Assembly (NCBI GenBank): GCA_963924565.1
Contig: OZ004613.1
Coordinates: forward strand, 23,126,001-23,190,000
DNA: 64,000 bases
Source: Ascidiella aspersa
Taxonomy: Eukaryota
Direction of reading: 5' to 3'
Positions 13,721 to 50,990 of the stretch are shown here, piece by piece. Position 1 is the first letter of the stretch. Each line of letters starts with the position of its first letter. The notes below the pieces were generated by a model. That model searched no databases. It was not told the origin of the DNA and saw only the letters and a program-made list of their open reading frames with translations. The position numbers and the translations under genes are program-made.

Positions 13721-15221
13721 CGTAAGCTGTAATCGTTGGTCAAAACGCAGCTTCAGAAGGGCTAGATTTCAGTGGTTAACACACATATGTGTGTGCATGT
13801 TTCATGGAATACATCCAAACTATTTGTGAAAAGACATTTCATCATAACCAATGCTTTTCAAAGCAGAATTTAGGCGTGGGCGACGGCCGACGGGGCATTG
13901 GTATGTTCTCTCTAATTGCGCGTATTTTCTGTTGTGATATATTATCGGTTCGGTGCCTTTACAAACAGCATGTACATGTTAAACTTGCGTGCAAACTAAG
14001 TGCATTCTTGTGGTAAAAAACGCGACCGAAGATTTTCCATGTGCTTGGACCGTTACCAACGCAAGGTTACGCCCTTAATCATTCAGACAGTAAAACTTCG
14101 GTGGGTTACGATTGATTCCAGTCCTAAATCACTGTCGAGAGATCGTTAAAAAGTACGACCTATTTGATCTGGTTGTTTGCGGATTTGTTTAAACTTGCTT
14201 AAGCGCGTTGAGGCTTTGGGTCTTTAGATATGATGACATGCCAGAAACAATGCACAGACGCAAAAGATTAAGCCTTCTGAAACGCGCCTGGCGGATTTAA
14301 AATCGATTACGCTTGATGTGGTCTGTCCCAATCGTCACGTTAAAAAAAAAACTTGATCGGTAAACAAGCTTGAGCACTAACATATTTAGAAAACATAATT
14401 TAGGAATGATGCTTTACTATGTTTTATATACAAGTCCTATCTACACATTATTGAAATTTCCGTTTTAATATAGCTAACTTGTAAAACATTGTTGTAATCT
14501 ACGTGGAACCTAATTTGTTACACAGCAAATTACCACTCATTTAAAATAAGTTTACCAGCGTTTTAAAAAAAACGTTGAAATATGTCCATCCACAAAACGT
14601 GTAATATAAGCAAAGACTATCAAAGACAGGGGGTGCTGTGTAAGCCAAAGGTTTGCAGAGGACTTGTGTATTACTTTTGTGGGGTCACAGAACGTCTGTA
14701 TGCCTTAAACCTATAAAACGAGAATGCCCTCGTTTGCTCTAAACCATTTAAAGAAAACGGCATTGATTACCAATTAGTTGCGTCAATATTTAGAAAGCCT
14801 ATAATGCGTTTTTCTTCGATCACACAGTTGGCGCACTGAGCGCATTTCCCTTTGTTTCTTGATGCGTTGCCAAAGCAATGAAGCGCAACTCCTCAACCAG
14901 GAAAGGAGGAATTAGCTCTTTGGATTCAATACAAAAGCGCGTGTAATTTTTAATATGAATTGACTTTTGGTGGCTTATAAGCCTTTCCGTGCTGTCCTAT
15001 CGATTTTTAAAAGACGGAAGCGTCTGTCGCTCAAGCGCAGTTATGACAAATGACACGTATGCAGTCCATTGCTGTCTTGGCGATCTTTTTAAAGTCGCCA
15101 TGTCGATATACTCGAAGTTTCAGCGAGAAGCGCTATCTAATTGCCCTGCGCGACTTAATATTCATGAGGCTTACGTGTCCTGTCGCAAGCGTGAGAAATC
15201 GATAAACAGGAATGCGCTTAC

Positions 15222-15375
15222 CGTCACGTCTGAAACGGTGCATCTGACAGCGGCGACAGTAGCGCTGGCAGTACACCTGTCTTCGGTCCAAGGCCAAGCT
15301 CTCGTAGCCAGCTGTGAAAAGGTCGACGGTCAGTATGACCGCTAGGAGAAGCAGCATGCAGCGTTTGGAGTCCAT
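15222..15375 (-). CDS. Secreted cysteine-rich cationic peptide precursor, coding exon 1 (MDSKRCMLLLLAVILTVDLFTAGYESLALDRRQVYCQRYCRRCQMHRFRRD)
   Basis: A-rich context caaaaaATG, hydrophobic signal-like core, strong donor G|GTAAGC (phase 1), upstream acceptor tttttgttttcag at 15478-15490. Confidence 0.75.
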
Positions 15376-16569
15376 TTTTTGTCAGGTTTTCGCGCGTGAT
15401 TCACTTGTCCAACAGTGTAATGCGCTTTGCAAGGCTTTAGTTAGCTTTTACGTAAAAATATCACGGTTTACTTAAGACTGAAAACAAAAATCCAACAAGT
15501 TAATAAACAGTCGGCTATTACTATAAGATGAGTGATAGTATTAAAGCACTTTTTCCTTATATTACAATGCTAAGAGACTTAAAGATAAAAAAAATTGAAA
15601 CCAACCTACGTTAGTTTATATTTTAAACATTTCTGCCAGTGGTTCTTAACTTTATTTAGTGTCGCTACTCATAAGAAGTATTTCACGGATTTAAACATAG
15701 CCTATATTTAAAATTTGTGACGTTATAACCAGCAATTAAATAACAAAAAAGTACAAAATAATTTACTTCACATAAGCATAAACATAAAACATGTGGTATT
15801 TTATTTTGTTTTGTAGGTAAAATATAGCATTCGATATCGTTACCAAAATTTACCATCTAAAAAAATCAAACTACCCCATCGTGGGTAAATACCACGAACT
15901 ACTGATTTTTTTACAGTAATTATAGTGGCGCTTTAAGCCAGGGGTTAGCCAATGTAATTCATCCGGCCCGCCGCCATCCTCTCCCCGCCGCCAACTAGGC
16001 ACGAGTCAATTTTAAATACTTTTTGACTATTTTACCTCAGTTCAGGCAAAAAATTTTCGCGTCGCCGTGCGATTTGTTTACGATTTAATGCTCTCTTTTC
16101 AACTATAGATTACGCCGTGGAAGGCTGTCAAGTGTGTCGCGGACAAACGGAAAACGTATTTACAAATATTAGACATATTATATTTTTTAACATTTTTGTT
16201 ATTTTATTTTTATTTTCAGCAATGTAATAAAATATTGCAAGAATTTAAAATAAATGCCGGTATACCAAAATAAAATCGCGCCTTGCTCGCCAGTTCAGCC
16301 CTGGCCTAAAAGGGTTAACAACAATGATCTAGATTAAGTATTAATGTTAACGCGTTTTCTCAAAGTTTGATAACATTTTTCATTAGTAGTATGGCTGACG
16401 ACCTGAGGACTAGGATTTAAACCAAACAAACTCTTTTTTTCGCGCTTTGCGCTAACAGTTTATTGCCTCCTTAAATGTAATTAAACGCTTTTAGGTGCAA
16501 AAAAAGATGCGAGTCTGCCTGGTTCACAATAGTTCTAACATTTTTTAACACAATTCTTAGTTAACTTTT

Positions 16570-25511: not shown

Positions 25512-25739
25512 CTCTATTGCCTATATTACACCCATACCTAGCGAAAATAAGATATGCAGCAATCCACTCACCTTGCACCCACATTTGGAAAAAAACTTAA
25601 CAGTATGCCATTCCCACTTAACAAATTACATTTACGGTCTAATCGATTGTAAGTTTCGTCGAGTCCCATCTGTAAGCATGCTGAAATTATCATTTAACGC
25701 CCACTGTTTCTAACAATCTTTGTATATGGCCGTGGAAAC

Positions 25740-26611
25740 TTTCTAAATCCAGATAGTTTCCATCCGAAACACATCTTCAGATCAATAGTCTACAGTCAAG
25801 CACTACGATACATCCGGATCTGTTCCGAAACCGAAGACAGAGCAGCACAACTAAAAAAGCTTGCATTGACGTTTGAGAATTTGAATTATAGAAAAAACTT
25901 AGTGCAAAGCCAGATCACCAAAGCCAGGATGAGCAACAGAGAAGACCTCCTGACGCCCACAACCAAAAAGGACAACAACCGGACCCCCATAGTTCTAACG
26001 TACAATCCGCGGCTCCAACACCTGAACCGCATAATCGCCGACCTGCAGCCAATACTGGATAACAATCCTAAAACCGCTTCGATATTTCCTTTAAAGCCAC
26101 TTATAAGTTATCGGCAACCGCGCAACATGCGCAACATAGTCGTCTCCAGCAAATTTAAAGACGAAAAGCAAAACTTTGGTACCCTGCCCTGCGGGAAAAG
26201 TCGTTGTGAACTGTGCTCACATATCAATAGAAGTCACATCATTGAAGGACCGAACGGCAGCAGCGTTGAAGTCGGCGGCAATTACAACTGCGATACCACC
26301 AATGCGGTTTACGCAATCACATGCGTAAAATGTCCCCGAACCATATACATTGGAGAAACTGGACAAACAATCAGAAAGCGCATGAATGGACATAAAAGTG
26401 ACATAAAGCATGGACATATGGAGAAACCGGTCGGCGAACATTTTAACCAAGGATCACACAGTGTAAAAGACCTTAGAGTTTCGGTGATCAAAAAAGTAAG
26501 TAACGGCACCCAAGCGAGGCTCACAGTCGAACAAAACATAATAAAAAAGTTCGATGCCATTAATGTGGGGCTCAATCGGATTTGGGCTTTATGTCACACT
26601 ACACCTCATAG
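25740..26611 (+). pseudogene. Truncated PLE ORF with a probable 1-nt deletion near 26578
   Basis: No RT catalytic core. Restoring one G gives GLNRDLGFMSHYTS*, a PLE-like C-terminus, in place of the hydrophobic read-through of ORF 25866..26900. Confidence 0.8.
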
Positions 26612-26786
26612 CAGGCTGTACTACACCCATCGTACCTTGAAGCGCAGGCATCGTAGCATAATTGTTTTTGCGTCAGTAACACGCTTTTGCGAGCATGTGC
26701 CTGTGGATATGTTAGACGTCACCATTCTTATCGCCTTTTACTTGCGCCTGTGCTTTTACGTGCATTTTAATTGTTTTCATTTATAC

Positions 26787-26826
26787 TTTGACCTGATGAA
26801 GCACGGTTGTGCGAAAGCTTGTCGAG
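26787..26826 (+). ncRNA. Minimal type I hammerhead ribozyme in the PLE pLTR
   Basis: TTTGAC-CTGATGA-A-GCAC(GGTT)GTGC-GAAA-GCTT-GTCGAG: intact core, 4-bp stem II, palindromic short stem III (AAGCTT), stem I TTGAC/GTCGA. Confidence 0.85.
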
Positions 26827-27125
26827 AATCAAATACAATTTGTCTTTATACAGTGCCACCTGATTTCTCTGTTTCTAACAAGGTATTCGTTAACATTTGA
26901 TGCCATGATGGTTGATGCAAACACATTGCGTATGAAAGACACACACACATATGTGTTTAATAACAACTGTGATCTAGCCCCTCGGAAGCTGCTTTATGAC
27001 CAACGTTTACGGCTTCCGTATCAATAGTCCGTATCAAACTGATGATCCCCCAATGTGTAGTTGCTTGTACTAACAGAATGTGCAAGTATTGGCGTATGGT
27101 TGTTTCTCGACTCGCTCCTCTCTGA

Positions 27126-32260: not shown

Positions 32261-32877
32261 TGGTACTTCACATTTTTGGATTCTTTCTCGCAAGCTTAGA
32301 AACAGTAAAGTGTATTTATAACGATGGCTCCCTCTCAGCTGCAGTTTTAGACTGAAGACAGTTCTTTAAGCGAAAGTCTTCGCTATTGTGCTGTACCGTA
32401 AACATTTGAATTGGCCAGAGCTAGAATAGTTTATTATTTTATGACAGAAGAAACGGGCTTTTGTTACAACAGCTTATTGAATATAAGTTAAAAGTTCTTT
32501 ACGATGGGCATGCTCTCTGTTTATTTGAGTACTGTGCCCCTACGTTTCTTAAATATAGTTATAAGTTTGTCACATAAATATCCTTGACAAAATTTCCATA
32601 TATTCCCAATAGGCAAGCCATAAAATTAGCATTATAAAACGGGGCAATCGCTAAAAGATGCACAAAATGTTACGCGTTCCATTTACATTTTTGTGTGCTT
32701 TTAACGGGAAAGCGACATCCTAAACTGTCATTGAATCTGCCCGCGTTACAACCGTTTCTAAAAACACAATATCAGAAAAAAAATCTATGTATATATATAT
32801 ATACGGTAAAGTCGGTGCATATCGTGAGTTATAGTTACTAATAAGTATGTGTCGTGTTTTTTCAGCGTCCGTTCAAT

Positions 32878-32997
32878 ATGAGAGTTTGTTGGTTGCTAGC
32901 GTTGCTTTGCTTTAGTTGCGCAACAGCATTGGACACGAACGTTCTGGATGAATACGACCTCGAAGTTCAGGATGACGCGTCTATCGAGGATGAGTTG
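32878..32997 (+). CDS. PHEX-like coding exon 1: signal peptide [17 protein letters not shown] plus start of acidic region ([23 protein letters not shown])
   Basis: Acceptor ttttttcag ends at 32865, ATG at 32878, donor gtaagt at 32998. Phase 0 matches the next exon. Confidence 0.8.
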
Positions 32998-35900
32998 GTA
33001 AGTCTTTGGTAAGACGAGTTCGTAAATCGACATTTGTCTGCAACATGTATAATACTATAAACCAGAGGTGGGCAAAATTTTCTAGTCGCGGGCCAAAACC
33101 AAACCCAGAAAGGTCTCTGTGGGCCGTTAAATGTTAACTGTATAGACTTAACGCATCTTATTATAACCGCAAAGACAATAGATCAGGGATAAAACCAGGG
33201 TATTCTGCTATTTACACTCGATAGACGAACGAAATTTACGCAAAGCGCAAAACAGATTTGCTTTTTCGTAGTTAAATAGCAAAGAATATATGAGGAATGG
33301 TCTCGTTCCCAGTTTGTGAAATAGGGCCGGATAATTTGCGTTGGCGGGCCGTAAGTTTGCGGGCCGTAAGTTTGCGGGCCGTAAGAAACCGTCATCGCGC
33401 AATGATTTTTGACGACGTTAACATTAGTCGAACACGAAGTTATTCGACGTTTTTTTGAGGCAGTACTGACAACATACAGGCCAATGATTGTGAAGTTTTT
33501 TAGCCTGTGGCACACATAGGAAATTAAACAAATTGCGGCTCACTTTCTACAAACCTTTACAATCATAACTTAAAATAACACTTAACACGAAAAGCGATCA
33601 GGTCAATTTACGTTAATATTAATAACAGTAAAATGATGAATAGTGAGCAATAAATCTGGCATGTTTGTCGGCATGCTTAGGCCTATGTGCAACACAAAGA
33701 TTTTTTCATGATCATGTAGGTTTTGCGGTACATTTGAAAAGGTCTCTCGAGGCACACTGAATTCCTGCCATAGGCGCGTAACAGTTTACGGCTCTCCAAT
33801 AACAGTGTATTTATGGAAATGTTTCTTGGATAAAAATCAAAATTTGATTTGGATGAAATATAACTGAACGAGAATTTTATAAAACTCACAATATATTTTT
33901 CAAGTTTTATATGTTTAATACTAATATTCAAGTTAATAAAATTCAACAGATCAATGTGTTCAGGTTACCGATTGTTAGTCATTTAAGTCTCTGCAGTTTA
34001 TAAAGAAGTTTAGAACTTTAGTTAGTTTATTTGTTTAGGGGTAAACTTAAAAACTTAAGGGGTAAACATGCTGAACGATTCCTTTTAAGCTATTCAATGT
34101 ACGCCTTGCGTTGTTAATATATTACCGTATGTCAGATAATTGACTTATGTAGGAAGCTGGCGTTTCCGTTAGTGTGGGTTACCTAGACTCGCCTGCTGGT
34201 TTGCTAACGTCTTACGCCATTGTTTTTTTATAATGAGTAAATTTTTGTTGTAGGGGGCGGAATTGTTCAAAACGTATGACAAAAATAATCCTAAATATTT
34301 TGCATAAATTTTTACCGAAATATGAGTTAAGTACATATTAATTCCACTCAACTTTCTTATTGCTGAATCCTGACAAATAACTGATTATACAAGTCTGGGT
34401 GTGTTGCGCAGCTTAGAGAATCACTTCCACCATCTGTTTCCTTCCCATCAGACAGGCCACTTGTTTGTTTTCCTATAACGACATACTTTATATCTTTCTT
34501 TACACTTTTCAACGCTCTTCACAAACCTTTTGGTAAAATGCTTACTATTTTTAACTACGAAAATGTCGTATATATTCTGTGTTGCGAATAGCTTGAATTG
34601 ATTGTTGTCGATCGACAGAATGCCGAAATGGCGACAATATCGGACGAAGACATGGCCGGTGCCCGTTTGGATACGACGAGCAGCGACGCGGAAGACGTCC
34701 TACTGGACAGCGCCTTATCGGAGGTAGATCAACTCGAACAGCTGCTACACAAACAGCTAAATGACGAAGAAGGTGAAGTGAACAATAGAGAGCAAAAAAA
34801 AGATGATATGGATTTGGAAGATGTGGATCAATCAGACGGAGAACCGGAAGACTTTGGCGGACTTCATTTTATGAAGAAACGGAGTCTCCGCGACTTTTAC
34901 TTAGAAAACGCTATGCGACGGTTCCTGTTGGGACCGCATGGGCACAGCAGTCACGACAACTTTCCTCCAGATATGCAAACAGGTGAGCCTTTTTTCATAC
35001 AAATAACAGCAACATGTCGCGATTGCTTGTGTAAAGCGCATTTTGGTATGTTATAATTCTTGTTATTAGTACAACATATTATTACTTAGCAGTTGTAAAA
35101 TGCGAATCCCATTAATAACACAACATATTTGGAGAGAAATTATGTTTACCAGTACACACAAATAGCTATCTGCTTTAGTAGGATGCCTTACAGGTTATTC
35201 AACCGTGACGTTTGATTGTCCATGTCTGACAAAAATAACTTTTAAATCCGTGGAGTTAAACAGATGACAACTCAAACGAAGAAAATGGCACAAACAAAGT
35301 CTTTGAGCAGACTCTGTCGTACACTACAAGCCAGCGAAACTATGCAACCTATGTAATTACGCAGGCTAACTTGCTCTTACGAAGGTTTCCTTGTACCATA
35401 CTATGGTGATAACTATAACCAGCGATCGCCATTGGGCGTTAAACATCATATTTGTCAAAAGTTTAAGCAACTATTTGTTCCTCAGCCCCTCCAAGAACTA
35501 ACTGCTCAAGCTTCGTAAAACCGACCAAGCACTCAAAATCAACTTGCGGAGTGACCAACACAACCATGCTCGGCTCCATTCACTGGTGCCACGTAACATG
35601 CTCCAAGGGATACAAGTGAGTTTTGATATATGTAAAACACATTCGGTGCGCCACAGCGTACTTAAAAATATTGGCCAACGTGTATTTTGGCGAAGTCATA
35701 TAAAAGTCCTATATGTCGCTAATAGTTTAATTGTTGGCCTTGACAACACTTTTGGTTATTAAGCTCTGATTGGGAGGAAATACAACAATTTTGGAGGGTT
35801 AGTTTTGTTTTTCAAATAAACAAAATGTAAATTAGTCAAAAAACTGTATACCACATATTGTCTCACCGTTACACCTGAATCTCAAAGTATCGTTCTAATT

Positions 35901-38900
35901 ATGTTTGGAAATATCATTGTTAGAAAAACAATATAGGACCTTCATAATTTAGGGAAACTTGTTTCCTAATTTAGGGAAACTTGGACATAGATAATTGTAT
36001 GATAATATGGTCGACAAATTAAATTGACGAACCTATTGTTTAACGCTATTGCTATAATCAGAGTGCAATATGTCGAAGCAGTAATAGGCGCTAAAACAAT
36101 GGTTCCTAAACTGATGGGCTCCGAAGAATGCTTGGGGTCCGTGAGGAAGTTTCAAATATTTATCCACGCAAATACCTTTAAATTCTTTAAAGGATAATTG
36201 CATTAGCTCAAGCACCTGTTTTTGATTAGGTTACATAGGTCATTTAGCAATTTGCATTTTACTTCTAATTTCCAATTAATAAAGTAGGAAGAACACGGAT
36301 TCCTCCTGACCAAAACGTTAGAAAACTAATGTTTTAGTTAAGGTTCTAGTTAATTCGCAAAACACCATAGAAATCGTTTTGTTGGTCAAACTAGGTGAAT
36401 GCCTGCTGGCTTTCGAGTGATATGGAATACTTTACCTATGCATTTTTTGCCAGGCTCAAGCTGACCTTTCCCCAGTACGAGCTTTGCGGCAACGCCACTA
36501 AATTCAGGTGGACCTACGAGCTGAGAGGGCTAACAAAAGGATCCGAAAGATGTATTAAAAAAGGTTGCAATTAATCGATTTTTATGCATGATTGTACTAG
36601 GGCGCTTGAGTGAATACTGTGATCTTTGATTGGAAGCCATAAGGTTCGCCATTTAAGAAGAAAAATAACCTAAAATAACGGAGTACATAATTCAGTTGTT
36701 TGCTCGGTTTAAGTGTTTATTTGTGTATAAATAAACATACAACAATGCATAAATTGTTAGTGTCGAAAGTGGAAACACACAAATCAGCTATTTAAATAAT
36801 TAAAAAAGACTATCGATAACATAACGTGGTATAAATGTTACTTATACCATTTAAAAGCTTACAAATCACTGCTTATACTTTATTTTTCAGCTTATTTAGG
36901 CTTTCATTGTAAATATCCAACATATTTTAAGGTGCTAAAGTGGCGACGAAGAAAAAAAAGACAAGCAAAAGCACTACTGCATCTGTCGCATGCACCACAC
37001 CACAATGTTTTGCGTCAGGTCAGTATATTACATTTTTAATAAAGCATATTGAAGTCTTTCGCATTGATGAAATCCTCGCTTACAACATATCTGTAGAGCT
37101 ATTAAACTGCACTTAAAAATGTAACGCAACTTTCACGGCATTAAAACTAAAGGTAATAATTTAAAAAGCAATCCACCCTGGCAAAATACTGTGATTTATA
37201 CTAAAACAATCGCTTTTACAAAATGCTGGAGTGTATTATGCTGTAACAAACACGCGCCAGGTAACGAACACGTGATGGTCGTGCTATTTGATTTACAATC
37301 GCGGCAACTTTAAACAGAATATGCAAATTCATGGTAAGGTTTTATGTAAATTAAACGCAAAACCTTGACTTATTTTGACAAACTGTTGGGTCTATGTAAA
37401 CAGGTTACCTCTAAATAGCAGTATTTGATTAAATGGATAATTGATACACGCCGCGAATTAATTCGTTTTCCAGTGTGTAGATAATAGATACCAAATAAAC
37501 ATTTATGTCAAGATAAACGCGATACATTCGGTATGAATCGCCATTTCGTATACTTTCAAAAGTGTTCGTATGTTTTCCCATTCACTGACTTAGATTTTTA
37601 ATTTTGTTTTGTATAGCACGCTGCTTACGGCTATAGTTTAAACCAAATGGGATGATTTAAAGTTTTGGGGAAAATTTGTTTAACAGTTATTAGCAGTTCA
37701 GCCAACATGTACATTAACTTATTCGAGTTACACATGCCTCTAAATCTTGTAATTGAAATGCAGTAAATAGCCAATTTCTACTTTAGGGCGTTTAAAGATT
37801 TACTATACGGTCAGCATATTAGCAAAGCGATATACTTTCCATCCCTCTATTCAATGTCATGCCCAACAAAAATGGAAGATGAAACACGTACCAATAGATT
37901 TCGATTAGTACATTTCCTTTCGTTTTATGTCTTTGTTTTTTGTTTCTTGATCTAAAATGCAATCAGACACGCTTTAGGTATATAAATAAATGAAGGCACC
38001 GTTAAGGCCTGCAACACCACAACTGTTTCGAAAAAAACATAAACCCAATTATTTTGCAGTTAAATCGATATGCTTGGCCCATAGCAACCCAGCGGATAAC
38101 AACGTTAAAAAAAGTGTCGTTCACAAATGATTTAACTGCGACTGCCGAAACGCCGTTTTAAATTACTTTGAAGGCTGCACCATGAAAGCAGTTTGTGTGT
38201 ATAACTTTTTAATTTTACATATTTTGCTGTTTGAGCATAGTTATGACATCTATCGGATCGGATCGCGATCCTTTTGTTCCTAAATATATTTTTGGTCCAA
38301 ATTAGAAAAGCTAAATCTATTCATTGCGTTTAAGTCAGTCCCATTGCGCAAGTCTGTATAGGGCAAGCGTTAGTAGGCCGGATTCTTAATGTTTAGTGTT
38401 TTCCTGTCACACACAGCCGCCTACTACATGAACAAGATCGACTTCAAGGTGAACCCGTGTGACGACTTTTACGAGTTCGCATGTGGCCGCTGGCTCAAGG
38501 AAACGCCCATCCCACCGTCCAAGAGCAAGTTCCTTACCTACACCACGATCAGAGACCGCGTTGCTCGTAACATGGCAGGTAGGTTGTGCCGGGTTTTGGT
38601 GTATTTGATTTTGTTTGCATAATGACTAAAGTCTCAGTTAAGTTTGCTGATGAGCGTGATCAATAACAAATTATAAATATTTTATACCCTTATTATAATA
38701 AACTCTTCTGTTTTTCTGGGCCATTTAGAAACTTTAAATCCTTGTAGTAACTTGATGTCCTTATACGTTTTGAGTTCTTAATACTTTCCTATCATAACGC
38801 ATTTCTTGATATATTTGTAGTGCTATAAAACATAAAAAATGGAAAAAAACAACTATGACATTCTAATTCATTGTTTTTTAGTGTTTTCAAAAGGTGTCAA

Positions 38901-41900
38901 AATTTCAACCACTGTCTTTTTAGCAGTCTCAAAACTCATATTTGAACACCATTACAATGCTATTCGTTACCTATAGAGTTATTAGTGTCCAATCCTAAAC
39001 TCTTTTAACATTTCAACCTGTATATATATCTTAATTAATGCCTATGGAACTAAAAAGCCTTCGCTTTTTTCAGACTTGCTAAACAAACCCTACGTGAAGA
39101 CCGAATGTGAAGCAGTGAAAAAGGCAAAAATTGTCTACAAGGCTTGCATAAATACAGGTACGTAAGATTTAAAAATACTAAACTACGGTTATAAATAAAA
39201 AGTTCCACAACAAAACCAAAGGTTCCTTTTGGGCCGCGACGACTTAAATTGGTTATAATCCTTTTAAACCAACCAGGTGTGTTTAGGCAGGGCTAGCATT
39301 CAGCGTTTACTTCTAAGATTTGTGCTTGTTTTTAAGTATAGTCATGAGAAAATATTGATGTACTTATTTCTAAGAAACGAGCATCATTTTGAGGTGTGTT
39401 GTTTTTGTCTAAATTTTGTGTGTTTGTTTTGTTTCATACTTCCGTTTTAAAGTAGCTATTGTATACATCAGGTCATCAGGTGGTTTTATACGCAAAGCTA
39501 TACGCGCCAAGTCACAATACTGTAAAGTATTAATTGCTACAGGTTATAAGAATGTTTTTTAATAAATAGGTCTCTTTAACGTGAGTAGAAACAAGTTTTT
39601 CGCTGGAACAGGATAATAAAATTATTCCACACGTATAATTAAAGTGGTTCAATTGTTTGTTTTTTGCAACATGAATACCCTAATATTGTTTTTTTCGAAA
39701 TAGAAGTGTTTTATGTATTCCGAACTGAACTATATAGCTACTTTGTTGCACGTGGTTTCCCAAGAATCGCATTGGAAACTTGCAGTAAATAGCTATACGA
39801 GTGGTAAACTATTGTATACGGATCAGAGTGTAGTGTGGGTAATTTTTGGTCTGAGCAGATGGTAACCCTGCTTCAGGTCCGTTTGATCAGATTAATGCAA
39901 CTATACGTCTGCTTTTTAATTAGAACTGATCGACGAGTTAGACGCGAATCCGCTCCACATGCTTCTCAAGGACGAGTTGCAGTGGCCAATCATCAGCCCG
40001 GACTGGGACCCGAAAGACTTTTTCCTGGAGAAGACACTTGCAACACTGAGAGGAAGATTTAACAACCAGGTCCTCTTCAAAACGGTGGTAAGGAAGACCA
40101 ACGGAAACCACGTGCTACAGGTAAATTAACCCCAGGACTTTGTGATTCTCGGGCGAATCAATTGTTCGATTGAAGCAAACATTACACAAAGGTTTCGTAT
40201 TACATGTAATATAGGTTGACACACAAATATTCACACAGTTAATCGTTGCTTTTCTTCCTATGTCGATTTTGTGGCTTTAAGTCCGCAATAAACCATATCG
40301 ATTTTATTCTTTAATTCTGTATCGGTAAAAACATGGGTCAAATTAAAATAATAAAATTCTGAAGTAAAATACATTAAACCTTTCCATAGTGGCAGTTCGT
40401 TTTTTTGTAAAGATTTACCTAATGCTAAACTATACCCAGGCCTCCTAAATCATATTGAAATTTTCCAATTTTTCAATTGATCTATTATCTTTTTAGAGAA
40501 GCACTATTTTACGTTGTTTGTGTGGCATTTCGTTTATTTTATAAGTTGCCACAGTTTCAAACAGTGCATTGCTATTAAGCCAAACAACCTGTCCAAAAAA
40601 AAAAACACTCGGCAGCTGTAATGTTCGTAGGTGGTCGTGTTGCTTCAACCGGAGTTTATATATTTAGTTTGCAACAGCGACTTGTATTGTTTTTGCAGAC
40701 CTGGAAAGGAAAGCTGGCTCTTCCGTTCGCCTACTATAAGGAGCCGCGCTACGAAAAGGTAAGTCGGAGGGTAAATATATGCTTATGGCCGCTATCAACA
40801 CAAAGTAGATTCCCCACCTCTCTCTTTTTATACAACGGGAATGCGAACAGTGCTAAGACGAGATAGTCATAAACAGTGACAACTCGAAAGGACACTAACA
40901 CAATTGTAGACTCAGCTGATAAATATGACGAAATGATATGCTATACTTAGAAATATATGCAAATTTATTTGTAGAGACATGCAACATTCCCCAAAATACA
41001 TACTATTATCATGCAGCTTTTAATAGCGTCATAATTTTAAGTGCCCCAAACTCGGCAATACTGAAAATAGTAGCACGAAAAGTTGAAAATTACAGAGCTA
41101 TCCACCTTTTTCACAAAATGCAATGAACTACCGGCAAATAATTTTATTATCTGGTATAAGAGCACAGTGCTTTACTGTAAACAAACCTACACTAGCCTAT
41201 TTTTGATGGATGTTTTTAGGTATAGGCAGCGTAAAAGTAAACTAATAAGCAAGCAAATAGCAAACTACTAATAAAGTCACTAAAAAAATGAAATAATATT
41301 GTAGTCTCGTGCCCTTTTTATATTTGGATAAAAAAACCCTATAGGGGCGTGACTGCAACTAAGAACCATTCGTTTAGACGCGTTAAAAGCCTATAGGTAA
41401 ATTCAAAACTTATTTAAACGCAAACCAGCACACCTTTTCGGTTTAGATCTTTGGTTGACTAAACTACACAAACATAATGCTTCTGCATGCAAAAACAAAT
41501 GGCCTTCAAAAGAGCCGCATAAACCCTTTGTTTTCTAGAAACTGGACGCCTATTACGATTTGCTGTACGACGTTGCTATGATGATGGGCGGCAACCACGA
41601 TAGAGTCAACTCGGACATCGGCGACTTGAGACAATTTGAGAGGAAGCTCGCCGACTACAAGCTCGACGACTGGGATTACTTCTCTCCGTTGACCATCAAC
41701 CAACTGCAGTTTCAAGTACCCAACGTAAGAGAACCATCGCTGAATGATTTGTTTCACACTTAATAAAGTGTAGCAACGTCGCAAACCATTGGGATTGGAA
41801 GAACACCGAACAGTAGTACTCTAGGTCTAACAAAAAGGTGGTATTGGTGCTGATGCGATTCCAAACTAATCACACATTTAATATTTGGTTTCCAATCGAA

Positions 41901-44900
41901 TTTAGTACGTAAAATCAATAAATCTCTTTTAATAGTTGTCCAAAATAATACGTCTATGTTTATGTACCAATTAGAAAGATGAATAGAAACTAATTTGAGG
42001 TTTTATATAACAGATTAAAGATAATGTTCCTCTATAAAGATATTTTATCTGACTATATAAATCTTTCTCTTAGGGGTTACAGCCTCCTAATTCCTCCCTT
42101 CATAAAAACTTCATCCCAATTTTGTTGCTATAGTTGCTCATTCGAACTGAAGAGTTTGTTTCTCGCTTACTTGCTGTATATCATACATATATTTTCGTAA
42201 GGCTTTATAATTGCGCTTGCCAAATTGGTTAGGCCTGCGCAGCAAATGGTTGAATCGCAGATTTTAAACACACTTTCTATCGGCCTTACCAAACCCCGTT
42301 CTTATAATGACCCGTTTTTGTTTCTAGATCAACTGGTTATATTTGTTCAAAACCATGATACATTCGCACCCAATCACGAAATCGACCAAAATACAAGTGT
42401 GGAATGTAAATTACTTGAACGATCTCATAAACCTCATCCAGCGAACCAAAAAAAGGTAAAAACGTGATTTCGAATTTGCAAAAAAAATGCAAAATCCAAG
42501 CTTAAATTATTCGACTTTTTATAACTTAAAACGATCGAGTAAACTTTGAAAAGTAAATGCAATTGAGCTGTGAAATACGAAATCCTCTGAAAAATGAGTT
42601 ACAACTTAACCTATCGGTTCCCATATATGATTAAATTAATGATAATCGGGTTATAACATATCATGTAATTTTAGTAAATATACATGTAACCTAAAAAAGT
42701 AAATAACATAGGTAAAAATGTTGTGCAAAATAACCTATAGTACAAATTGGTCATTCTTGATCAAAAACAAGTCAAGATCACGTCATTGTTTGTTGCGTTC
42801 CAATCATAAGTAGAACAATGAAAGTTCTAAGTTATTAGCATTGAAATGCAACGATTGAGACTAAAACAAACGATGCATTTCTTCCATCTCCAGCACTGTT
42901 TCACATTGCCACCCTAAATCAAAACAATATAAGCAAGCAAACCGTTTTACGCGAAAAAGTAACCAATACCATTTTTTACCGAAATCGTGTGGATTAAATT
43001 GTAATTCATTTGCCAAATTTATTTCCAGATCAAGTCATGTACTCAACAAACTTAAGTAAATTCCAAGTCTTCCCAAAACAGTATAACCTGTCCTAAATCA
43101 ATAAAAATGTTCCGTTGCTAGAAATAACATCTTCAATTTGTGCTATACTGATCAATTCCTGATTTGCGTCAAGACATATAAATATAAAAACACTAGTATA
43201 GACTTTAAATTTGATTGGTGTAAAAAATAATCTCAGTGCTCTTCCGCGATGTCAATCCAATAAACATAGGCGAATAAGTAGGAAGTAAACGATATGCAAA
43301 CTCTTAAAGTTTTATTTCATTAAATTTTAGAAAATAATCGCAGCTTCGTCATTTGATTTATCACAGGACAGTTCAAAACTACATGATCTGGCGTTTCGTA
43401 AAACACCGCGTCAGAAATCTCAGCAATCGCTTCTCGCAAGCTTATCTGCGGTACGAGGAAAAGATGCTGGGCAAAGAGTCCCTGCCACCAAGGTGGGACA
43501 AGTGCGCTACCCACCTGCTCTATCTGATGAAAGGCGCCACAGGGAAGCTGTTCATCGACAAGTACTTCTCCGCCGCCAAGAAAAAGGCTGTGAGTTCTTG
43601 TAACTGTAAAGTCCGGATTCTAACCCATAAGCCATATGTCTATATGGTATTTTTGGCATGAAATTAATTAATTTAAGGTTTTCGCTGGTCAACACAGAAT
43701 GACCAATTGATGTGTGTTTCCCACTGTTCATTTCCAATATTTACGTTAACGGCATCATAAATTAAAATCATCACAAAAAATTTCTAATAAAATATGCACA
43801 TAATGTAATGCTGGACTGTTTTCAAAATCAGTGTTTAAACATTAATCCTATAAATAATTACGTAGTTCGGAACTATACGTTGCTTATAAACAATATTTAT
43901 CATATAAATAATTAAACCCGTCTTATATCTACCATCTGCAATAATACAGTCCACACGCTATATGCATGTTAACTTACAAATAGAGAGATTGGTTTAAAAT
44001 AGTTCAAATCATTGACAAAGGATAATCAGAACAAGACTGAGTTTAAAACGGAAAGAAAATAAAGTTCGCTTTGGTTGTTTTTCAGGCAAAGGAACTATTC
44101 AACTTCATCCGCAAAGGATTCCTGCATCTTCTCGACTCCGAAGTGACCTGGATGGACAACAAGACGCGCGCCTACGCAAAGCGAAAGGCTCTCGCCATTA
44201 CGTCAGACATCGGCTACAACCCGGCCATCTACAAGAACACAACATATCTAGATCTTGAAGTGAAGCACGTAAGTGCCGACGTTCGTCGTAATTTTCTTAG
44301 TGGTTTGTTGGTCGAAAATGTAAAGAAAATGAGCCAGCATTTTACCAGCTATTATAGCTCATCGCTTTATGGTGAAGGTTCTAACTGATGAAAAGTAGAG
44401 AAAAATAGGTGATTGTGAATATAAAATGTCCCGCCTGTAATAAATAAGGAAAGTGGTTAACTAAAAATATCTATTAGGCTTTACGCAAAACCGTTCAAAA
44501 TAATTTTACTCGTACCATATGAGCTATTTTGGAGCGTGGTTCACCGTCGAGATTTTTAAATTTTGGTTTAATTTTTCACGACTATTTAGCTTGTTGAAAT
44601 GCTAAACAACAGTGTATAGAAGTGAAGCAGATTCTTAAAGGGTTTGAAACATTTACACAATGATAGTTAACTTGACTATTTTAAATGGTTGTGTTTGATA
44701 ACAAGACACATATTCTGCGTGGATTCTTCTCCAGGGCATCGGAAGTTTAGTATAGCGATTATATTGCGATAAAAAAACAAGAAAGATCGGACTAAAATTG
44801 AAATAAATTATATCACTTACAGCTTGAAGTAAGGACGTGGGATTACTTCGGCAACACACTCAACCTGTTGACGACCATCTCTCAAAACAAATTCAAACTG

Positions 44901-47900
44901 CTGGGCGAGCCTTACAACACCACCGTAGATATGTTCACTCAGAGGCCTACCATGGTGAATGCGTTTTACAGTCCAACAAGGAACCGAATCAGTAAGTTTA
45001 TCTAATATTTGCCAGCATTAAAACAATATATAAATAATGCACTTAGTAGAATTCGTAGGTAAAAACACATGTATCATATATGTGTAGTATTTTATCCAAG
45101 AAAAATCACAATAAAAGTCAAGCTTTTCCAACACAACTAGTAGGTATAGAGCGTTTAATCATTCTTAAATTATATATACGCAGGCACGGGCAATCGTGTT
45201 ATTAAAAAAGTTTATAACGAAGATCCATTCGACGACCTTATAACTTGTTCAATGGCCATTAGGGGAGATTTTTATTTTCACAAATATATTACTATATAGT
45301 CTCTGCAATTCTGTGTTAACTTATTAAACTTGTTTTTAGCTCTTCCCGCCGGAGAAATGCAGTATCCGTTTTACTGGGGAGACAAGTTTCCAAGGTTGGT
45401 AAACAATTGTGTTAAACAATGTTTAGTTAAAACGCACTATAGGGTGATTAATATAGAATTGCGTAGAAATCAAATGATGAAAACACACCATGACTTATAG
45501 GCACCTGAAGACGAAAAAGTATTTTTTAAACAGATCAACAAGGGTATTTTTATTATTATATTTGGAATTGACTTGTTGAGCCGATAAGTTGTACTAAAAA
45601 AAAAACATGACATATTTTAATAACTATAACTATTTTATAGTAGATTATATTGATATACACCCTTGCATTTGTAAACCAGGATGTTCCAGTTCGGTGGCAT
45701 CGGTACGATTCTGGGTCACGAGCTTACTCACGGCTTCGACAACACGGGAAGGCAGTACGACCTCAAGGGTAACTTGAACAACTGGTGGACCACCACGTCC
45801 CTCATGCAGTTCAAGAAGCGTACCACGTGCATGGAGGACCAGTACAGCAACTACTACTTCGCAAAGGCAGGGGAACATGTAAGTATAGCGCGGTGTTGAG
45901 CGCAATGCTGTATGTGACTTATGTAAATAACTTCTCGCAGTTAATTACGGCAAAATGACTTGACTTGACTCAGTCTTTTGGTCAAAAATACCTCACGTCA
46001 TTTATATGTCTTTTGAACAAATGACTTGGATTGAAGTAAAATGTTTTCATTGAGCATTTGTTTTCTTAAAGTTGGGTTATTTATCTCATTGCTGCACATA
46101 ATATGTTTTCCTGTTAAATGTTGCGTTTTTTTTATCAGTTGTGTTGTTGCGTATATTTCACGAGTTTACAAAGTTTGTGAATTTTCCATTTAATATTGGT
46201 TAACAAGGACTTGACTAAGAATTAAATTGCTCTAATTATGACATGGCTTGGACTTCATTTGTCACTTATTTAAAAATACTTAACTTGGGTTAAATTAAAA
46301 GTTATTTTAAAAATGACTTTTTGTTTAATAGCTTTCTTTATGGCCTCGCTGTGCGTTTTCCTTTGGTCATAAATCAACCATCTTGAAATTAAAATTAGAA
46401 CCCAGGCCAGCTGGCTTTCAAGAAACTTAAAACAAGTCGAGGTATCCAAATCCATTGTTTTGAAGATATGTAAGGCATGATCGTCGACCTATAGTTGTAT
46501 TTTGCCCAAAATGCTAAATTTGTTCTATACATAAGACGCCCCCCGCCTTTTTAGGCCCAAGGTTAAAATCTGAGTCCGTTTTGACTTGCATTCGCATTAT
46601 CGTATATTTCACGCTAATCTTGGTTTTCAGCTGAAGGGTGTCAAGACGCTGGGTGAAAACATTGCTGACAACGGCGGCATCAGGGAATCATTCGAGGTTT
46701 GGAAATCGATAAAAAAAGAAAAAATCGCTCCAATAAGTAGTTTTAAAATCTCTAAAAAAAACTGTTTGACCTTTTAAAATTGGCAATTTTAAGACATTAA
46801 AACTTTGCAGGTACATAAACGACATAAAACCCCAAGTTGCTTAATGGGCTTTTCAATTGGCAAATAGTAGTCCTATTATTTAAACTAAAACAGACTTTAG
46901 TTCTTTCGAATGTTTTAATTTGAAAATATCCACATTTATTTTATTTGGCAGTTAAAAGCAACAAATACTAAGATGGTAAATAATAATGGCGTTGAAACAT
47001 TCTTTTCTGTAATATTTAATAACTATCGGTTTTAGAATGCGACTTGCCTCGTGGCTCAACGTTTGTTACGTAACAACTGTATTTCCTACCACAATTTTCG
47101 AGAATATAACCATTGCATTACTAACAGATTAACTAACGCATCTTCTACAAAACAGGGTTATCACCTCTGGTTAAAGGCTAGTGGTTTGAAGGGTGAACAG
47201 GTTGAGCCAACAACCGGCCTTACCAACGACCAAATGTTCTTCGTCGGATTTGCGAACGTAAGAAACCTTGTATATTTAACCGCGAGGTGGCAACAACGAG
47301 TTTATATTTTTGATACGTCACCCAAAACATCCAATTGTAAAGATTGTGGAAAATGTGTGCAAGAAACTAGTATATTTGTTTGAAACAACCTGGATAATTG
47401 AATAAATAACTAGTTGCCAGATTACGCTATTTGCAATAAAGCACAATACCAGAGTTCAACGAATGTTAGGCCCAATAGGCCAGGAAACATTGCTAAGAAT
47501 TTCAGAATATACCACTCTTTTTAAAAGATATTTATTATAAAAAAGCAGGCACAAGCGTTATCTTTCTTCCAGGGTATGTCTTGAATAACATTTTGTCACA
47601 GCTTTACACTTTTACTTAACTTGCTGCAACTATTTGTCAATTTGATTCCTATCGAGTCCACGAAACCGCAGCAAAAATTGGTTTACCCTCCTTCGATCGC
47701 GTTTGTGATAAAACCCAATATAGCGTCCTCCCGTTGTTGTCAGATTGCTACGTTATAGAGCAAATTCATTGCCGCAAATTCGCGTGATGCAACAGAATCC
47801 TTCTATAAACACCCGAACTCTGATCCTATACGTTTACGTTAACGGAGCATCAGCTATAGGATGACGGGCTACTGACAGATGAAACGTGATTTTTGGTTGT

Positions 47901-50900
47901 TTTGGCTTGCCGTGTGTCCGCCAATCCGCTGGTGGAATCTAGAGTTTCGCTTTTCGCATATTCAGAAGCACGTTGGCCACATTTCCTGTACAACATTCGG
48001 TTGTTTTCCCCGCTGAAGTAACTCCATCACTCTATCTTCGCTTTCGTGTGGGGTTTGTTTTGAGGTGACCTGATAGCAATCGAGAACTGGTATTCTACCA
48101 GGTATTGAAAACAATTGTTAAAGGGTATTTTTTACACTGCGGCGCTCATCAAAGTTTTGTCAAACAACAACTCACAAATCAATAAATCACAGAAGACTTT
48201 TAAGTATGAAAGAGGTCATTTCAACTTCGAATATTTGAACCATAAATATATTGATATTGATAGATACCTGCCACTTTCACTTCTTCTTTCTTGGCAATCA
48301 CGAAAATGCACAAACGCACATGTCACTAAGGAGCATCCATCGGCTTGGCATGTAAATATGACCGACATCGGGTTTATAAATTACACAAGTGCATTTCCGC
48401 CTTTTTACGCCGTATTTAAAATAGTTTACTACCAAAGCTTCCGTCCAAAACTTTTACATATACTAAGAAAGGATGTCGTGAAGGACCTTTGAAGGCAAAT
48501 ATAACTAATATTGCAAAAATATAAGAGGATATTGTTTTTCAAGTCAGAATGCCAAAATTGCATAGGGGCTGAAAAAAAATCCACCGAAAAAAAACTAACC
48601 GTTTCCGATGATTATCCTAACGAGAACAATATTTGCTTTGCTTAAGCTTGTGGTGCGCCAAAACAAATAAGTATTCTTAAGTTTCGTAGTTTGTTTACTT
48701 AAACCACCCCAAAATTCTAGGTTGTTCGCACAACTTGTCAGAGTGAGATGTATACAAATGTTAGCCCAAAGTATAACGATCTCGCCAAACGACTTTACAC
48801 TAGCCTCGTATGACACACAACTTTGCAACATTGAAGTTTTGTAAAAGAAAGGCAGCGTGCCGCAAATCGCGAAGTCAAGCTCTTCGTTGGCGATGTGACT
48901 TGCGCGAACCTTGGCAAAATAAAGGGCGTTAAACAATAATTGAAGAGTAAACACTAAAATAGAGGAAAGGAAAAAGAACAAAAATAAGGAAAGAGGAAAG
49001 ATGAAGCGAGGCGAAGCAAAGAGCAAAAATAAACAAATCAAATCAAATAAATGCGACCACATAATAATAAACCTGCCCAGACCAACAATTGTAAAACTGG
49101 GTGAAAAGTGAATAATGCTATAGACTTTTGTAAAGTCATCACCCTTCCAGTTTTGCTGAGTCACCACTCGTCCAAACAAACACGTTTGTCGTTTAGGCGT
49201 CGTTTGCGGTGCATTCACAACACACGCCCAGAAAGAGAAAGAACGTCTTGAGGTTACCCTATATTTGTACAAGTGCTGACTCACCCATTACCCATACGGA
49301 GTGCGGCCCGATCTCTAGATTGGCACAAACTAGTAGTTTTTGTCCCCTTTTCAGACGGCGTTCAATTTTTAGCGGTTGGCCTACTGTCAGTGCGTACCAC
49401 GTGGTTTGCAAAACAATTATTTTCTCTGTCAAGAGTTGTATTTATTGAAGTCAAAAATGAATCAAAAAATTCACAACAGCGGTAGCCGCATACCACATTT
49501 TATTGGCCAATTTAATATGGAAAATACAGAATATATAGTAATTACGGCAGCCGCAATCATTTTATACTTACTTAATTTTCTTTTACGTGCTGCTTTAACT
49601 TCGTCGTACCACCTGAAAAATCTTCGTGAACCTTTAGTGGTACGTCTACTACAGGTTTAGAACGGGAGATGTTCGATAATTTCATGACGTCATAAAACAA
49701 GTTGAACAGAAACCTGTTGTTTTTAGTCGAATAAATGTGAAAGTAAAATGGCGTTTAACTAACTTCAAGGAGAAGTCGCCGAGCTTTTTTAAATAAATTC
49801 AACTCTTTTAAAAAAATATTCCCAATATTTAATATACTCAAAACAAATCATTTAGGACATCATGGAACCCTATCTAGTCCACACAAAATTTGTTCTTTTT
49901 GCAGCACAACAGGCTGTATGTTTCTATAAGTTTAGTGCCTTGTGTGGACTGGGGTGTAAAAGTTCTTTATTAGAGTGTGTTTTGTTCCACAAAAAGTTGA
50001 CAAGCACGCTTTGCAAAACCACTGCCCTCAAAGTGTTCTCTTCCTTTGCCAGGTTCGATGCGGCAAATTTACCCATCGAGGGGCGGTACATGAGGTGGCG
50101 AAGGACGTGCACAGCCCAGGCCGATTCAGGTGAGGGTAATTAACAGGCGCTCGCAACGCGATACCGCTAATCTGCTGGATGGTGAGGTTGCCACGTATAG
50201 GGCGGTATGCCCCTGATATGCGCAACATTGTATTCTATTCTGAACTTTACCTGTGAAGAAAGCAGGTAAAGTTGCTGCGCATGAAAAGGTTAAATTTCGT
50301 GCGGGTTCAACATCGTGTAATATAGTGTTGTAAACAGAGTCATTTAAGTCCAAGCCAAGTTTTCTTTTCTTAAATAACAATACAAGTCACGTCATCATTA
50401 CAGCAGGTCAATCCCAAATGAAGTCCTTTGAAAATTGAATATGGACAAATTTACTTATATGGCCAAATTTAGTTACTAAAAAGTAACAGAGACGCAACGT
50501 ATGGCAAGTAATTTGTATTAGGTGCAACAAAGTCTAGACAAGTTATTTAAAAACAATGCCTTAAGTTCAAAATTCATTGACTTAAAGTCATTATAAACCT
50601 GATTATTATACTTTCTTTGGAAAGAAGTAATAAAATCACCTATTTCATGTTTTACTTTTTTGTCACTTTGTGTAAAACGTTTCCTTTTAAAAAATATGTT
50701 ATAACGCTCCGATTAACAAATGTGAATGCTATAATTACCTGTAGATTTACGAAAAATCGGCGGAATGTTTCTAGGTCGAAAATGATGTGAGCTAAAACTA
50801 AGCATGCCTAGCAAAGCTGTTTATTAGCACAAGGTTTTTAAATATATAAGCACAAGGTTTTGTAGCGTATTTTGTTTTGTTCGATTGCAGAGTCATCGGA

Positions 50901-50990
50901 TCTTTGCAAAACTTCGACAAGTTTTCCACTACGTTCAACTGTCCTGCTGATTCGAAAATGAATCCCAAGACTAAGTGTGTCATTTGGTGA
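32878..50990 (+). CDS. PHEX: PHEX-like M13 (neprilysin family) zinc metalloendopeptidase, secreted form with acidic pro-region and Sushi domain; 20 coding exons, 2802 nt, 933 aa
   Basis: Twenty GT-AG-bounded exons join in matching phase into one open frame from ATG to TGA. Motifs: [30 protein letters not shown] (HExxH), [11 protein letters not shown], terminal CVIW. PHEX-type residues: PAGEMQ, QYSNYY, VRC, RWDKC. The symbol means PHEX-like; orthology is untested. Confidence 0.93.
33063..33385 (+). mobile_element. hAT-type MITE, family B, right end replaced by a 15-bp tandem repeat (GCGGGCCGTAAGTTT x~3)
   Basis: The left end CAGAGGTGGGCAA..AGTCGCGGGCCAAAA..CAGAAAGGTCT matches the reverse complement of 16575-16637. 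Confidence 0.7.
34619..34982 (+). CDS. PHEX-like exon 2: acidic region, KKR and RR dibasic sites
   Basis: cag acceptor and gtgagc donor; 364 nt, phase 0-1; lies within ORF 34598..35056. Confidence 0.85.
35486..35615 (+). CDS. PHEX-like exon 3: first half of Sushi/CCP domain ([39 protein letters not shown])
   Basis: ttcctcag acceptor, gtgagt donor, phase 1-2, C-x-V-x-C-x-x-GY pattern. Confidence 0.85.
36454..36563 (+). CDS. PHEX-like exon 4: second half of Sushi/CCP domain ([36 protein letters not shown])
   Basis: ttttttgccag acceptor, weak gttgca donor, phase 2-1, C...W...C pattern. Confidence 0.8.
36932..37018 (+). CDS. PHEX-like exon 5: Lys-rich linker and first M13 cysteines ([28 protein letters not shown])
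   Basis: Phase 1-1, gtcagt donor. CTTPQC is the canonical start of the M13 ectodomain. Confidence 0.88.
38417..38578 (+). CDS. PHEX-like exon 6 ([14 protein letters not shown])
   Basis: 162 nt, phase 1-1, M13 N-terminal signature. Confidence 0.95.
39074..39157 (+). CDS. PHEX-like exon 7 ([16 protein letters not shown])
   Basis: 84 nt, phase 1-1, KAK..Y.xC M13 motif. Confidence 0.93.
39924..40120 (+). CDS. PHEX-like exon 8 ([26 protein letters not shown])
   Basis: 197 nt, phase 1-0, tag acceptor and gtaaat donor. Confidence 0.92.
40699..40758 (+). CDS. PHEX-like exon 9 ([20 protein letters not shown])
   Basis: 60 nt, phase 0-0, ttttgcag acceptor and gtaagt donor. Confidence 0.88.
41539..41724 (+). 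CDS. PHEX-like exon 10 ([21 protein letters not shown])
   Basis: 186 nt, phase 0-0. Confidence 0.92.
42328..42455 (+). CDS. PHEX-like exon 11 ([17 protein letters not shown])
   Basis: 128 nt, phase 0-2. Confidence 0.9.
43367..43589 (+). CDS. PHEX-like exon 12 ([15 protein letters not shown])
   Basis: 223 nt, phase 2-0. Confidence 0.95.
44086..44268 (+). CDS. PHEX-like exon 13 ([17 protein letters not shown])
   Basis: 183 nt, phase 0-0. Confidence 0.95.
44823..44991 (+). CDS. PHEX-like exon 14 ([12 protein letters not shown])
   Basis: 169 nt, phase 0-1, NAFY substrate-binding motif. Confidence 0.95.
45340..45394 (+). CDS. PHEX-like exon 15 ([18 protein letters not shown])
   Basis: 55 nt, phase 1-2. 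Confidence 0.93.
45680..45878 (+). CDS. PHEX-like exon 16, zinc-binding GHELTHGFD
   Basis: 199 nt, phase 2-0; HELTH at 45717-45731. Confidence 0.97.
45910..46310 (-). repeat. Family C copy in PHEX-like intron 16
   Basis: GACTT-rich; its reverse complement aligns to 12518-12864. Confidence 0.62.
46631..46696 (+). CDS. PHEX-like exon 17 ([11 protein letters not shown], third zinc ligand)
   Basis: 66 nt, phase 0-0. Confidence 0.96.
47156..47257 (+). CDS. PHEX-like exon 18 ([14 protein letters not shown])
   Basis: 102 nt, phase 0-0. Confidence 0.93.
50053..50129 (+). CDS. PHEX-like exon 19 ([15 protein letters not shown])
   Basis: 77 nt, phase 0-2, HSP motif. Confidence 0.95.
50891..50990 (+). 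CDS. PHEX-like exon 20, terminal ([32 protein letters not shown])
   Basis: ttgcag acceptor, canonical M13 C-terminus, TGA stop. Candidate AATAAA signals near 51398 and 51530. Confidence 0.96.

Follow-up and report, generated by a model that had tools for sequence, protein, structure and literature searches.

Structure of the locus and of the encoded protein

The window, a stretch of 64,000 nucleotides of Ascidiella aspersa contig OZ004613.1, carries on its forward strand a gene of 20 exons (32878-50990), which runs from an ATG at 32878 to a TGA at 50990 and encodes a PHEX-type M13 peptidase of 933 amino acids with the predicted layout of a secreted protein. All 19 introns are bounded by GT-AG, and a single frame is open throughout, with one terminal stop. 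From the N- to the C-terminus, the protein consists of a predicted signal peptide (residues 1-17), an acidic segment (18-128), a short predicted helix that contains RR, a module with six cysteines (168-238), a linker rich in Lys, and, from C262 on, the M13 ectodomain. The features are listed below (↓ marks a cleavage position).

32878-32997, + strand: coding part of exon 1, with the predicted signal peptide and the first acidic part
32878-32928, + strand: predicted signal peptide, residues 1-17, a hydrophobic N-terminus ending in A-T-A↓L
32929-32997, + strand: first part of the acidic segment, residues 18-40, exon 1 (translation)
34619-34982, + strand: exon 2, which holds DTTSSDAED and [17 protein letters not shown]
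34619-34882, + strand: second part of the acidic segment, residues 41-128, exon 2 (composition, RNA depth)
34874-34882, + strand: KKR↓S, candidate convertase site, K126-R128
34916-34921, + strand: RR (R140-R141), the second dibasic site, within a predicted short helix
35503-36553, + strand: 6-Cys CCP/Sushi-like module, C168-C238, exons 3-4 (35486-35615, 36454-36563)
36932-37018, + strand: exon 5, Lys-rich linker and first M13 cysteine motif (translation and alignment)
38417-50990, + strand: M13 catalytic ectodomain, exons 6-20 (Pfam and alignment)
38417-38578, 39074-39157, 39924-40120, 40699-40758, 41539-41724, + strand: exons 6-10
42328-42455, 43367-43589, 44086-44268, 44823-44991, 45340-45394, + strand: exons 11-15
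45680-45878, 46631-46696, 47156-47257, 50053-50129, 50891-50990, + strand: exons 16-20

The signal peptide was called by eye and from the alignment, in which four orthologous or paralogous tunicate proteins show a like hydrophobic start followed by an acidic stretch. An earlier reading of the DNA made from the sequence alone (the sequence-only reading) had proposed an acidic pro-region from 32929 onwards, and this position proved to be the first residue (L18) after the predicted signal peptide. The Lys run of exon 5 is longer in A. aspersa than in the four relatives.

RNA evidence was drawn from a single run labelled as this species, of which about 6% was read; 256 reads were placed, many of them on a repeat. 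RNA in the mate orientation expected for the + strand was present in the bins with 18 of the 20 exons at depths of 0.03 to 1.3 (exon 1 marginal), including 1.26 for the second acidic part in exon 2, and was lacking in all seven exon-free intron bins. No RNA joint across an intron reached the listing threshold in this one low-depth run, and the link between exon 2 and the M13 domain therefore rests on the frame, the splice phases, RNA depth on the matching strand, and orthologues with a colinear layout. Database proteins of Ciona (two genes), Styela, and Clavelina have these parts in a single chain and in this order. When the own genome (308.6 Mb, 75 contigs) was searched with exon 2 and exon 3, the gene itself was the sole match. 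The 20-exon model is taken as sound. It is very improbable that exons 1-2 are a separate small peptide-precursor gene whose join to the peptidase is a modelling artefact. The succession of signal peptide, acidic spacer, KR, short peptide, and RR does resemble a neuropeptide precursor, and the missing RNA joint would fit, but the single open frame, the identical part order in three genera, and the strand-matched RNA led us to reject a separate neuropeptide gene.

Directly 5' of the ATG, at 32858-32877, a pyrimidine run with AG resembles a splice acceptor, and the 12 bases upstream of it are in frame and free of stops. This site may belong to a 5' UTR intron or be a trans-splice acceptor, and an upstream coding exon may exist. 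Intron 1 harbors a high-copy, non-autonomous repeat (33063-33385), at which the contig depth is very high and loose ends are numerous. At 33340-33385 it contains a 15-nt unit in three tandem copies, an array that is shortened in both DNA runs.

Catalytic domain and substrate pocket

The Pfam families Peptidase_M13_N and Peptidase_M13 matched single exons with E values of 8e-13 and 1.9e-19, both above the curated cut-off. The M13 domain is 55-59% identical to tunicate PHEX-like proteins and about 40% identical to vertebrate PHEX, and its zinc and catalytic motifs are intact.

44955, + strand: VNAFY, intact
45354-45356, + strand: E740, residue of the PHEX clade, Ile in neprilysin (alignment with PHEX-clade and neprilysin chains)
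45717-45731, + strand: HELTH zinc motif, H766-H770, intact
46655-46657, + strand: third zinc ligand E828 (GENIAD), intact
50056-50058, + strand: R877, residue of the PHEX clade, Trp in neprilysin (same alignment)
from 50110, + strand: HSPGRFR, intact

The roles of these motifs (HExxH, ENIAD with the third ligand, the Asn of VNAFY, and the C-terminal His/Arg) follow the available part of PMC2259306. Neprilysin chains have Ile in PAGILQ and Trp in AQVWC, the positions at which vertebrate PHEX, amphioxus, and the Ciona membrane forms have Glu and Arg. Among 171 M13 proteins, a set rich in vertebrate PHEX, this pair was E/R in 93, I/W in 35, I/R in one, and other or unparsed in 42. Both columns line the S1' pocket, with Trp693 of neprilysin in that of R877. 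R877 probably binds the acidic side chain at P1', by analogy to the astacins, in which Arg gives an acidic P1' preference according to the accessible text of PMC3186203; that PHEX prefers acidic residues is stated in the part of PMC2259306 that was available. No PHEX-named chain was present among 14 solved relatives. Within the group of secreted tunicate proteins, VNAFY is replaced by VNARY in Ciona gene B and by VNALN in Clavelina (P0021, P0022), which, as judged from the motifs, is a divergence of subsites.

A CCP/Sushi-like module upstream of the catalytic domain

The 6-Cys module follows the basic sites and precedes the catalytic domain; it had gone unmentioned in the sequence-only reading. 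It has 25 invariant columns among four relatives and was limited to the secreted tunicate clade, with five matches among 1438 candidates in a search that is weak for distant relatives. No Pfam family, Sushi included, matched the module. An Atlas match was annotated with Sushi on 12% of its members, at 0.91, and a weak match to PAPP-A2 had an E value of 0.36. Folded alone from four sequences, the module gave an all-beta model with a pLDDT of 63. With this model, chains that contain CCP modules filled the top 19 rows of VIA-align (the best with a Z of 4.6 and an rmsd of 4.3 over 63 residues), and Foldseek returned no match at E 0.001 (best E 0.36), with CCP proteins among the best rows. The module shares with CCP/Sushi/SCR modules a length of about 70 amino acids, the all-beta fold of the model, the framing by cysteines, and a Trp before the last Cys, but it has six cysteines instead of the usual four. 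We describe it tentatively as CCP/Sushi-like, with a structural match obtained for a model of pLDDT 63. After cleavage at either basic site, the module would stay on the enzyme, where it would probably serve targeting.

Phylogenetic position and loss of the membrane anchor

A maximum-likelihood tree of catalytic domains was calculated from 34 rows, with invertebrate M13 proteins as outgroups and without vertebrate NEP or ECE rows. The six rows of the secreted type formed a clade (100/100), the sister of which comprised two tunicate membrane-type PHEX-like rows (100/99), and a PHEX clade of 16 rows united vertebrate PHEX, the tunicate forms, and amphioxus (100/98). A constraint that united the secreted rows with vertebrate PHEX and left the tunicate membrane rows outside, chosen after the tree had been obtained, was rejected (p-AU 0.0011). 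The tree and the Glu/Arg pair thus bear out the PHEX-type active site that had been claimed from the sequence alone.

The type II anchor with a short stalk is absent from the Ascidiella protein, in which a hydrophobic segment begins at residue 1 (mean hydropathy 1.6) and 240 residues precede the M13 domain. Outside the secreted clade, the PHEX-clade proteins of amphioxus, tunicates, and vertebrates have a membrane anchor; the secreted clade itself comprises tunicate proteins only. From the tree position and the anchored relatives, the anchor is therefore ancestral, and the signal peptide, the acidic segment, and the Cys module were gained in tunicates. On the sequences compared, the secreted acidic layout is a tunicate innovation and not the ancestral state of PHEX regulation. 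For the same reason, the gene does not have the bearing on a pre-vertebrate origin of PHEX-acidic peptide regulation that had been suggested for it, and the secreted clade is uninformative on the ancestral state of the vertebrate PHEX-ASARM system.

The own genome contains a second PHEX-clade gene (C7:18.10-18.18 Mb, L003-L012) with a candidate membrane-anchor exon. It is closer to the Ciona membrane form and keeps the Arg (MRC), and it has PAALLQ for the PAGELQ of PHEX and VVSVY in the place of VNAFY, so that its pocket has diverged. Two more M13 genes are located at C4:15.97-15.98 Mb and C5:33.86-33.88 Mb.

Composition and conservation of the acidic segment

Residues 18-128 contain 21 Asp and 16 Glu (33% of 111 residues) with a net charge of -29. 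Serine accounts for only 7 of the 111 residues (6%), and there are two S-x-E motifs. The richness in Asp and Glu that had been described for this stretch therefore holds, but not the richness in Ser. The segment gave no Pfam match, and exon 2 no usable Atlas match. In most relatives, the segment likewise opens with an E-[YF]-D-x-E-like sequence. Asp and Glu make up 30-41% of the region after the signal peptide in all five genes compared (Ascidiella, Ciona A, Ciona B, Styela, and Clavelina), and the distance from signal peptide to module varies between 65 and 150 amino acids. The alignment score of the Ascidiella segment with Ciona A was reached by none of 500 composition-preserving shuffles and that with Clavelina by two of 500, whereas the scores with Styela (121/500) and Ciona B (107/500) were no better than those of the shuffles. 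Across the five genes, acidic composition is thus kept in the aligned sequences while sequence and length drift.

Acidic stalks are rare among M13 proteins: at least 30% Asp/Glu in any 40-residue window of the N-terminal stalk was found in nine of 171, and five of the nine belong to the secreted tunicate clade. The other four (P0166, P0200, P0186, P0222) have Ile/Met-Trp pockets and lack the PHEX pair; an acid-specific site is therefore not needed for an acidic stalk. Long stalks, several with polybasic furin-like runs, occur in these four non-PHEX proteins and in P0237, and invertebrate M13 enzymes may commonly have their stalks processed.

The KKR at 34874-34882 and the RR after it (34916-34921), both pointed out in the sequence-only reading, were confirmed. 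KR↓S[FL] is present in three of the five genes (Ascidiella, Ciona A, and Clavelina), and some basic site in four. Styela, the only one with RxxR, has QER↓G in the place of KR↓S, RxxR 14 residues further on, and RELRK at about the place of the second RR, whereas no dibasic site was found in the segment of Ciona gene B (two entries). A D/E-L-x-x-MRR helix after KR↓S[FL] is common to the Ascidiella gene and Ciona A. The KKR has Met at P4 and is therefore not a canonical furin site. The internal KK of the segment is polymorphic (K101E; 34799 A>G in three of three RNA reads and in both DNA runs). The acidity in all five genes together with KR↓S in three makes a removable pro-segment plausible. As to its conservation, which the sequence-only reading had proposed to check, the acidity is general and the KKR-type site is kept in part; the varying length and the scarcity of conserved sequence weaken the proposal of a built-in substrate mimic or inhibitor.

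AlphaFold2 modelled the Ciona orthologue with a pLDDT below 50 for residues 1-71 and 78-250, whereas the M13 domain is mostly above 90; a helix (139-159) lies in the low-confidence part. The low values are consistent with disorder but no proof of it, because the alignment is shallow there, and the Cys module, left unfolded in the same full-length model, is equally low. The acidic segment is undocked in this single-chain model, which speaks neither for nor against binding of a propeptide.

The segment had been linked to the acidic ASARM/SIBLING peptides, and cleavage at KR would indeed free a polyanionic peptide, a plausible substrate. We consider it improbable, though, that the released peptide is an ASARM-like signal or mineral regulator which is later degraded by the enzyme. 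MEPE-ASARM has nine Ser in 19 residues (PMC3579870, accessible text), and for a segment with 6% Ser and two S-x-E motifs an ASARM-like composition, and with it the proposed link, was rejected; poor sequence conservation and the polymorphic KK also argue against this reading.

Charge contrast and role of the acidic segment

Charges were counted from the sequences, with His, glycans, and modifications ignored. In the Ascidiella protein, the acidic segment (-29) is opposed to +44 for everything after KKR, with +28 in the catalytic domain and +15 for the precursor. The corresponding values for segment and rest are -36/+34 in Ciona A and -28/+51 in Styela. Clavelina has -26 in the segment, +4 in the domain, and +18 in the rest, and Ciona B, without a dibasic site, -16 to -21 against +43 to +46. 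In a survey of 189 single-domain entries (600-760 aa, with HExxH; other fetched proteins were dropped), a catalytic domain of at least +15 was found in 12 of 14 entries of the secreted clade (about six genes, not independent), compared with none of 99 other PHEX-type and five of 76 other M13 domains. The membrane-bound relatives are at -26 (tunicate, Ciona) and -30 (amphioxus). Over conserved columns, 14 basic gains and 23 acidic losses stood against eight acidic gains and 21 basic losses, a small shift, and the basic excess is therefore diffuse.

We give about even chances to the reading that the acidic segment is an anionic, convertase-removed propiece which masks a cationic M13 enzyme of the PHEX clade. 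The layout, the charges, the conservation pattern, the intact catalytic motifs, and the tree position are shown by the sequences; secretion, cleavage, disorder, and charge masking are inferred as likely. The predicted signal peptide, in place of the membrane anchor, would direct secretion of the enzyme; while the strongly basic mature enzyme folds, is stored, and is secreted, a disordered anionic propiece would mask it, keeping it in solution and apart from the acidic proteins of the secretory path. A proprotein convertase would then remove the propiece at KR↓S. The mature enzyme, made up of the CCP-like module and the M13 domain and with a net charge of +44, would bind acidic extracellular substrates and cut them at sites with Asp or Glu at P1'. 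The opposed charges of segment and rest, KR↓S[FL] in three of five genes, and the kept composition are in favor of masking. Against it, the charge of the segment does not follow that of the body from gene to gene, as is seen in Clavelina and Ciona B, and the precursor is still at +15 with the segment attached. The propieces of defensins and cathelicidins are a precedent for charge balance (available part of PMC4571063), the prosegment of RegIII lectins is flexible, acidic, and inhibitory (PMC2643518, as far as accessible), and the M13 enzyme NEP2 is released by furin-like cleavage (excerpts of PMC4131500), with convertase release also given in the available part of PMC12304097. Since the enzyme is predicted to cut before Asp and Glu, it probably digests the propiece too, so that any inhibition would be loose and passing, with no fixed plug of the active site. 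The propiece is thus likely not a specific active-site mimic.

A true zymogen, in which the tethered acidic segment mimics a substrate for the Arg S1' pocket within the catalytic cavity and the enzyme is off until convertase or self-cleavage, is unlikely but deserves consideration. The Ascidiella protein has the PHEX-type Glu/Arg pair, its 37 Asp and Glu would supply numerous P1' positions locally at high concentration, and a basic site marks the boundary in four of five genes. The reading keeps its share of probability because PHEX handles long acidic chains such as osteopontin, the disordered acidic protein that it degrades according to the accessible part of PMC12642872. On the other side, the segment has no conserved motif as expected of a specific inhibitor, varies between 65 and 150 amino acids, and lacks a dibasic site in Ciona B; an Asp/Glu-rich chain is expected to be cut and not to block, and acidic stalks are also found on M13 proteins with the Ile/Trp-type pocket. 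Equally unlikely in our view is the extended proposal that a tunicate PHEX duplicate became a secreted, self-regulating zymogen, the polyacidic segment of which fills the acid-specific cavity and covers the basic surface until removed, and which is then targeted by its private CCP-like module. If the zymogen were true, a genuine inhibitory propeptide would be known for the first time from an M13 peptidase, and the protein would serve as a naturally occurring soluble model of how PHEX recognizes acidic peptides. M13 peptidases are not known as zymogens; a literature search for this combination returned unrelated papers only.

We think it rather doubtful that the segment is a sorting or spacer element without catalytic effect, comparable to granins (acidic, Ca-binding, or sulfated; in granules or matrix), which may stay attached in some species. 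KR↓S is absent from Ciona B and Styela, and in Clavelina the acidic segment precedes a near-neutral domain. In most members, the signal peptide is followed by a Tyr or Phe with acidic surroundings, an arrangement that resembles tyrosine-sulfation sites. However, Ascidiella and Ciona A have both kept KR↓S[FL] with the D/E-L-x-x-MRR helix, and KR↓S recurs in Clavelina, a pattern suggestive of selection for cleavage.

Comparison with related proteins

With vertebrate PHEX, the Ascidiella protein shares the clade (100/98), about 40% identity, the Glu/Arg pair, and intact zinc and catalytic motifs. Vertebrate PHEX, however, is held in the membrane by a type II anchor and has a short stalk and a domain close to neutral (median -1), whereas the Ascidiella protein has a predicted signal peptide, the acidic segment, the Cys module, and a domain of +28. 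The tunicate "PHEX-like" proteins of Ciona (XP_078493279.1, XP_078493290.1), Styela (XP_039273726.2), and Clavelina (XP_076819952.1) form one orthologous group with it (100/100), with the same part order and 55-59% identity in the M13 domain; they are named by automatic annotation only, and their N-terminal parts have no Pfam match. Two Ciona PHEX-clade genes were noted in 2008, with no comment on the N-termini in the accessible part of that paper (PMC2259306). NEP2/MMEL1/SEP/NL1 and Drosophila NEP2 are likewise soluble M13 enzymes, with NEP2 being released at a furin-like stalk site, but it is shed from a membrane anchor and of separate origin, and the available parts of the sources describe no acidic propiece or Cys module for NEP2. 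Defensins, cathelicidins, and RegIII, as far as their sources were accessible, resemble the Ascidiella protein as interpreted here in that they are cationic and secreted and begin with an acidic, flexible segment that is proteolytically removed; they are small antimicrobial proteins, in contrast to the 670-aa enclosed-cavity peptidase of Ascidiella, and the likeness is one of analogy and not of homology.

The genes are thus already in the databases as "PHEX-like", and what appears to be new are the secreted layout, the module, and the charge contrast, for which no description was found in a search of largely open-access literature. The clade is an example of how a conserved family can gain a domain and lose its membrane anchor. 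With a PHEX-type enzyme that is soluble by nature and carries an acidic segment of its own, it can be tested simply how the Arg pocket handles polyacidic chains, and Ciona is amenable to expression and knock-out work on the secreted PHEX-type gene.

Other features of the window

Fourteen other open reading frames of the window had no Pfam match. At 15136-15381 on the - strand lies a codon-biased frame with a signal-peptide-like start and a C-x-x-x-C-x-x-C run, also without a Pfam match. A 400-aa open frame at 25698-26900 on the + strand contains a GIY-YIG endonuclease domain (E 1.5e-7) and is presumably the end of a Penelope-like retroelement.
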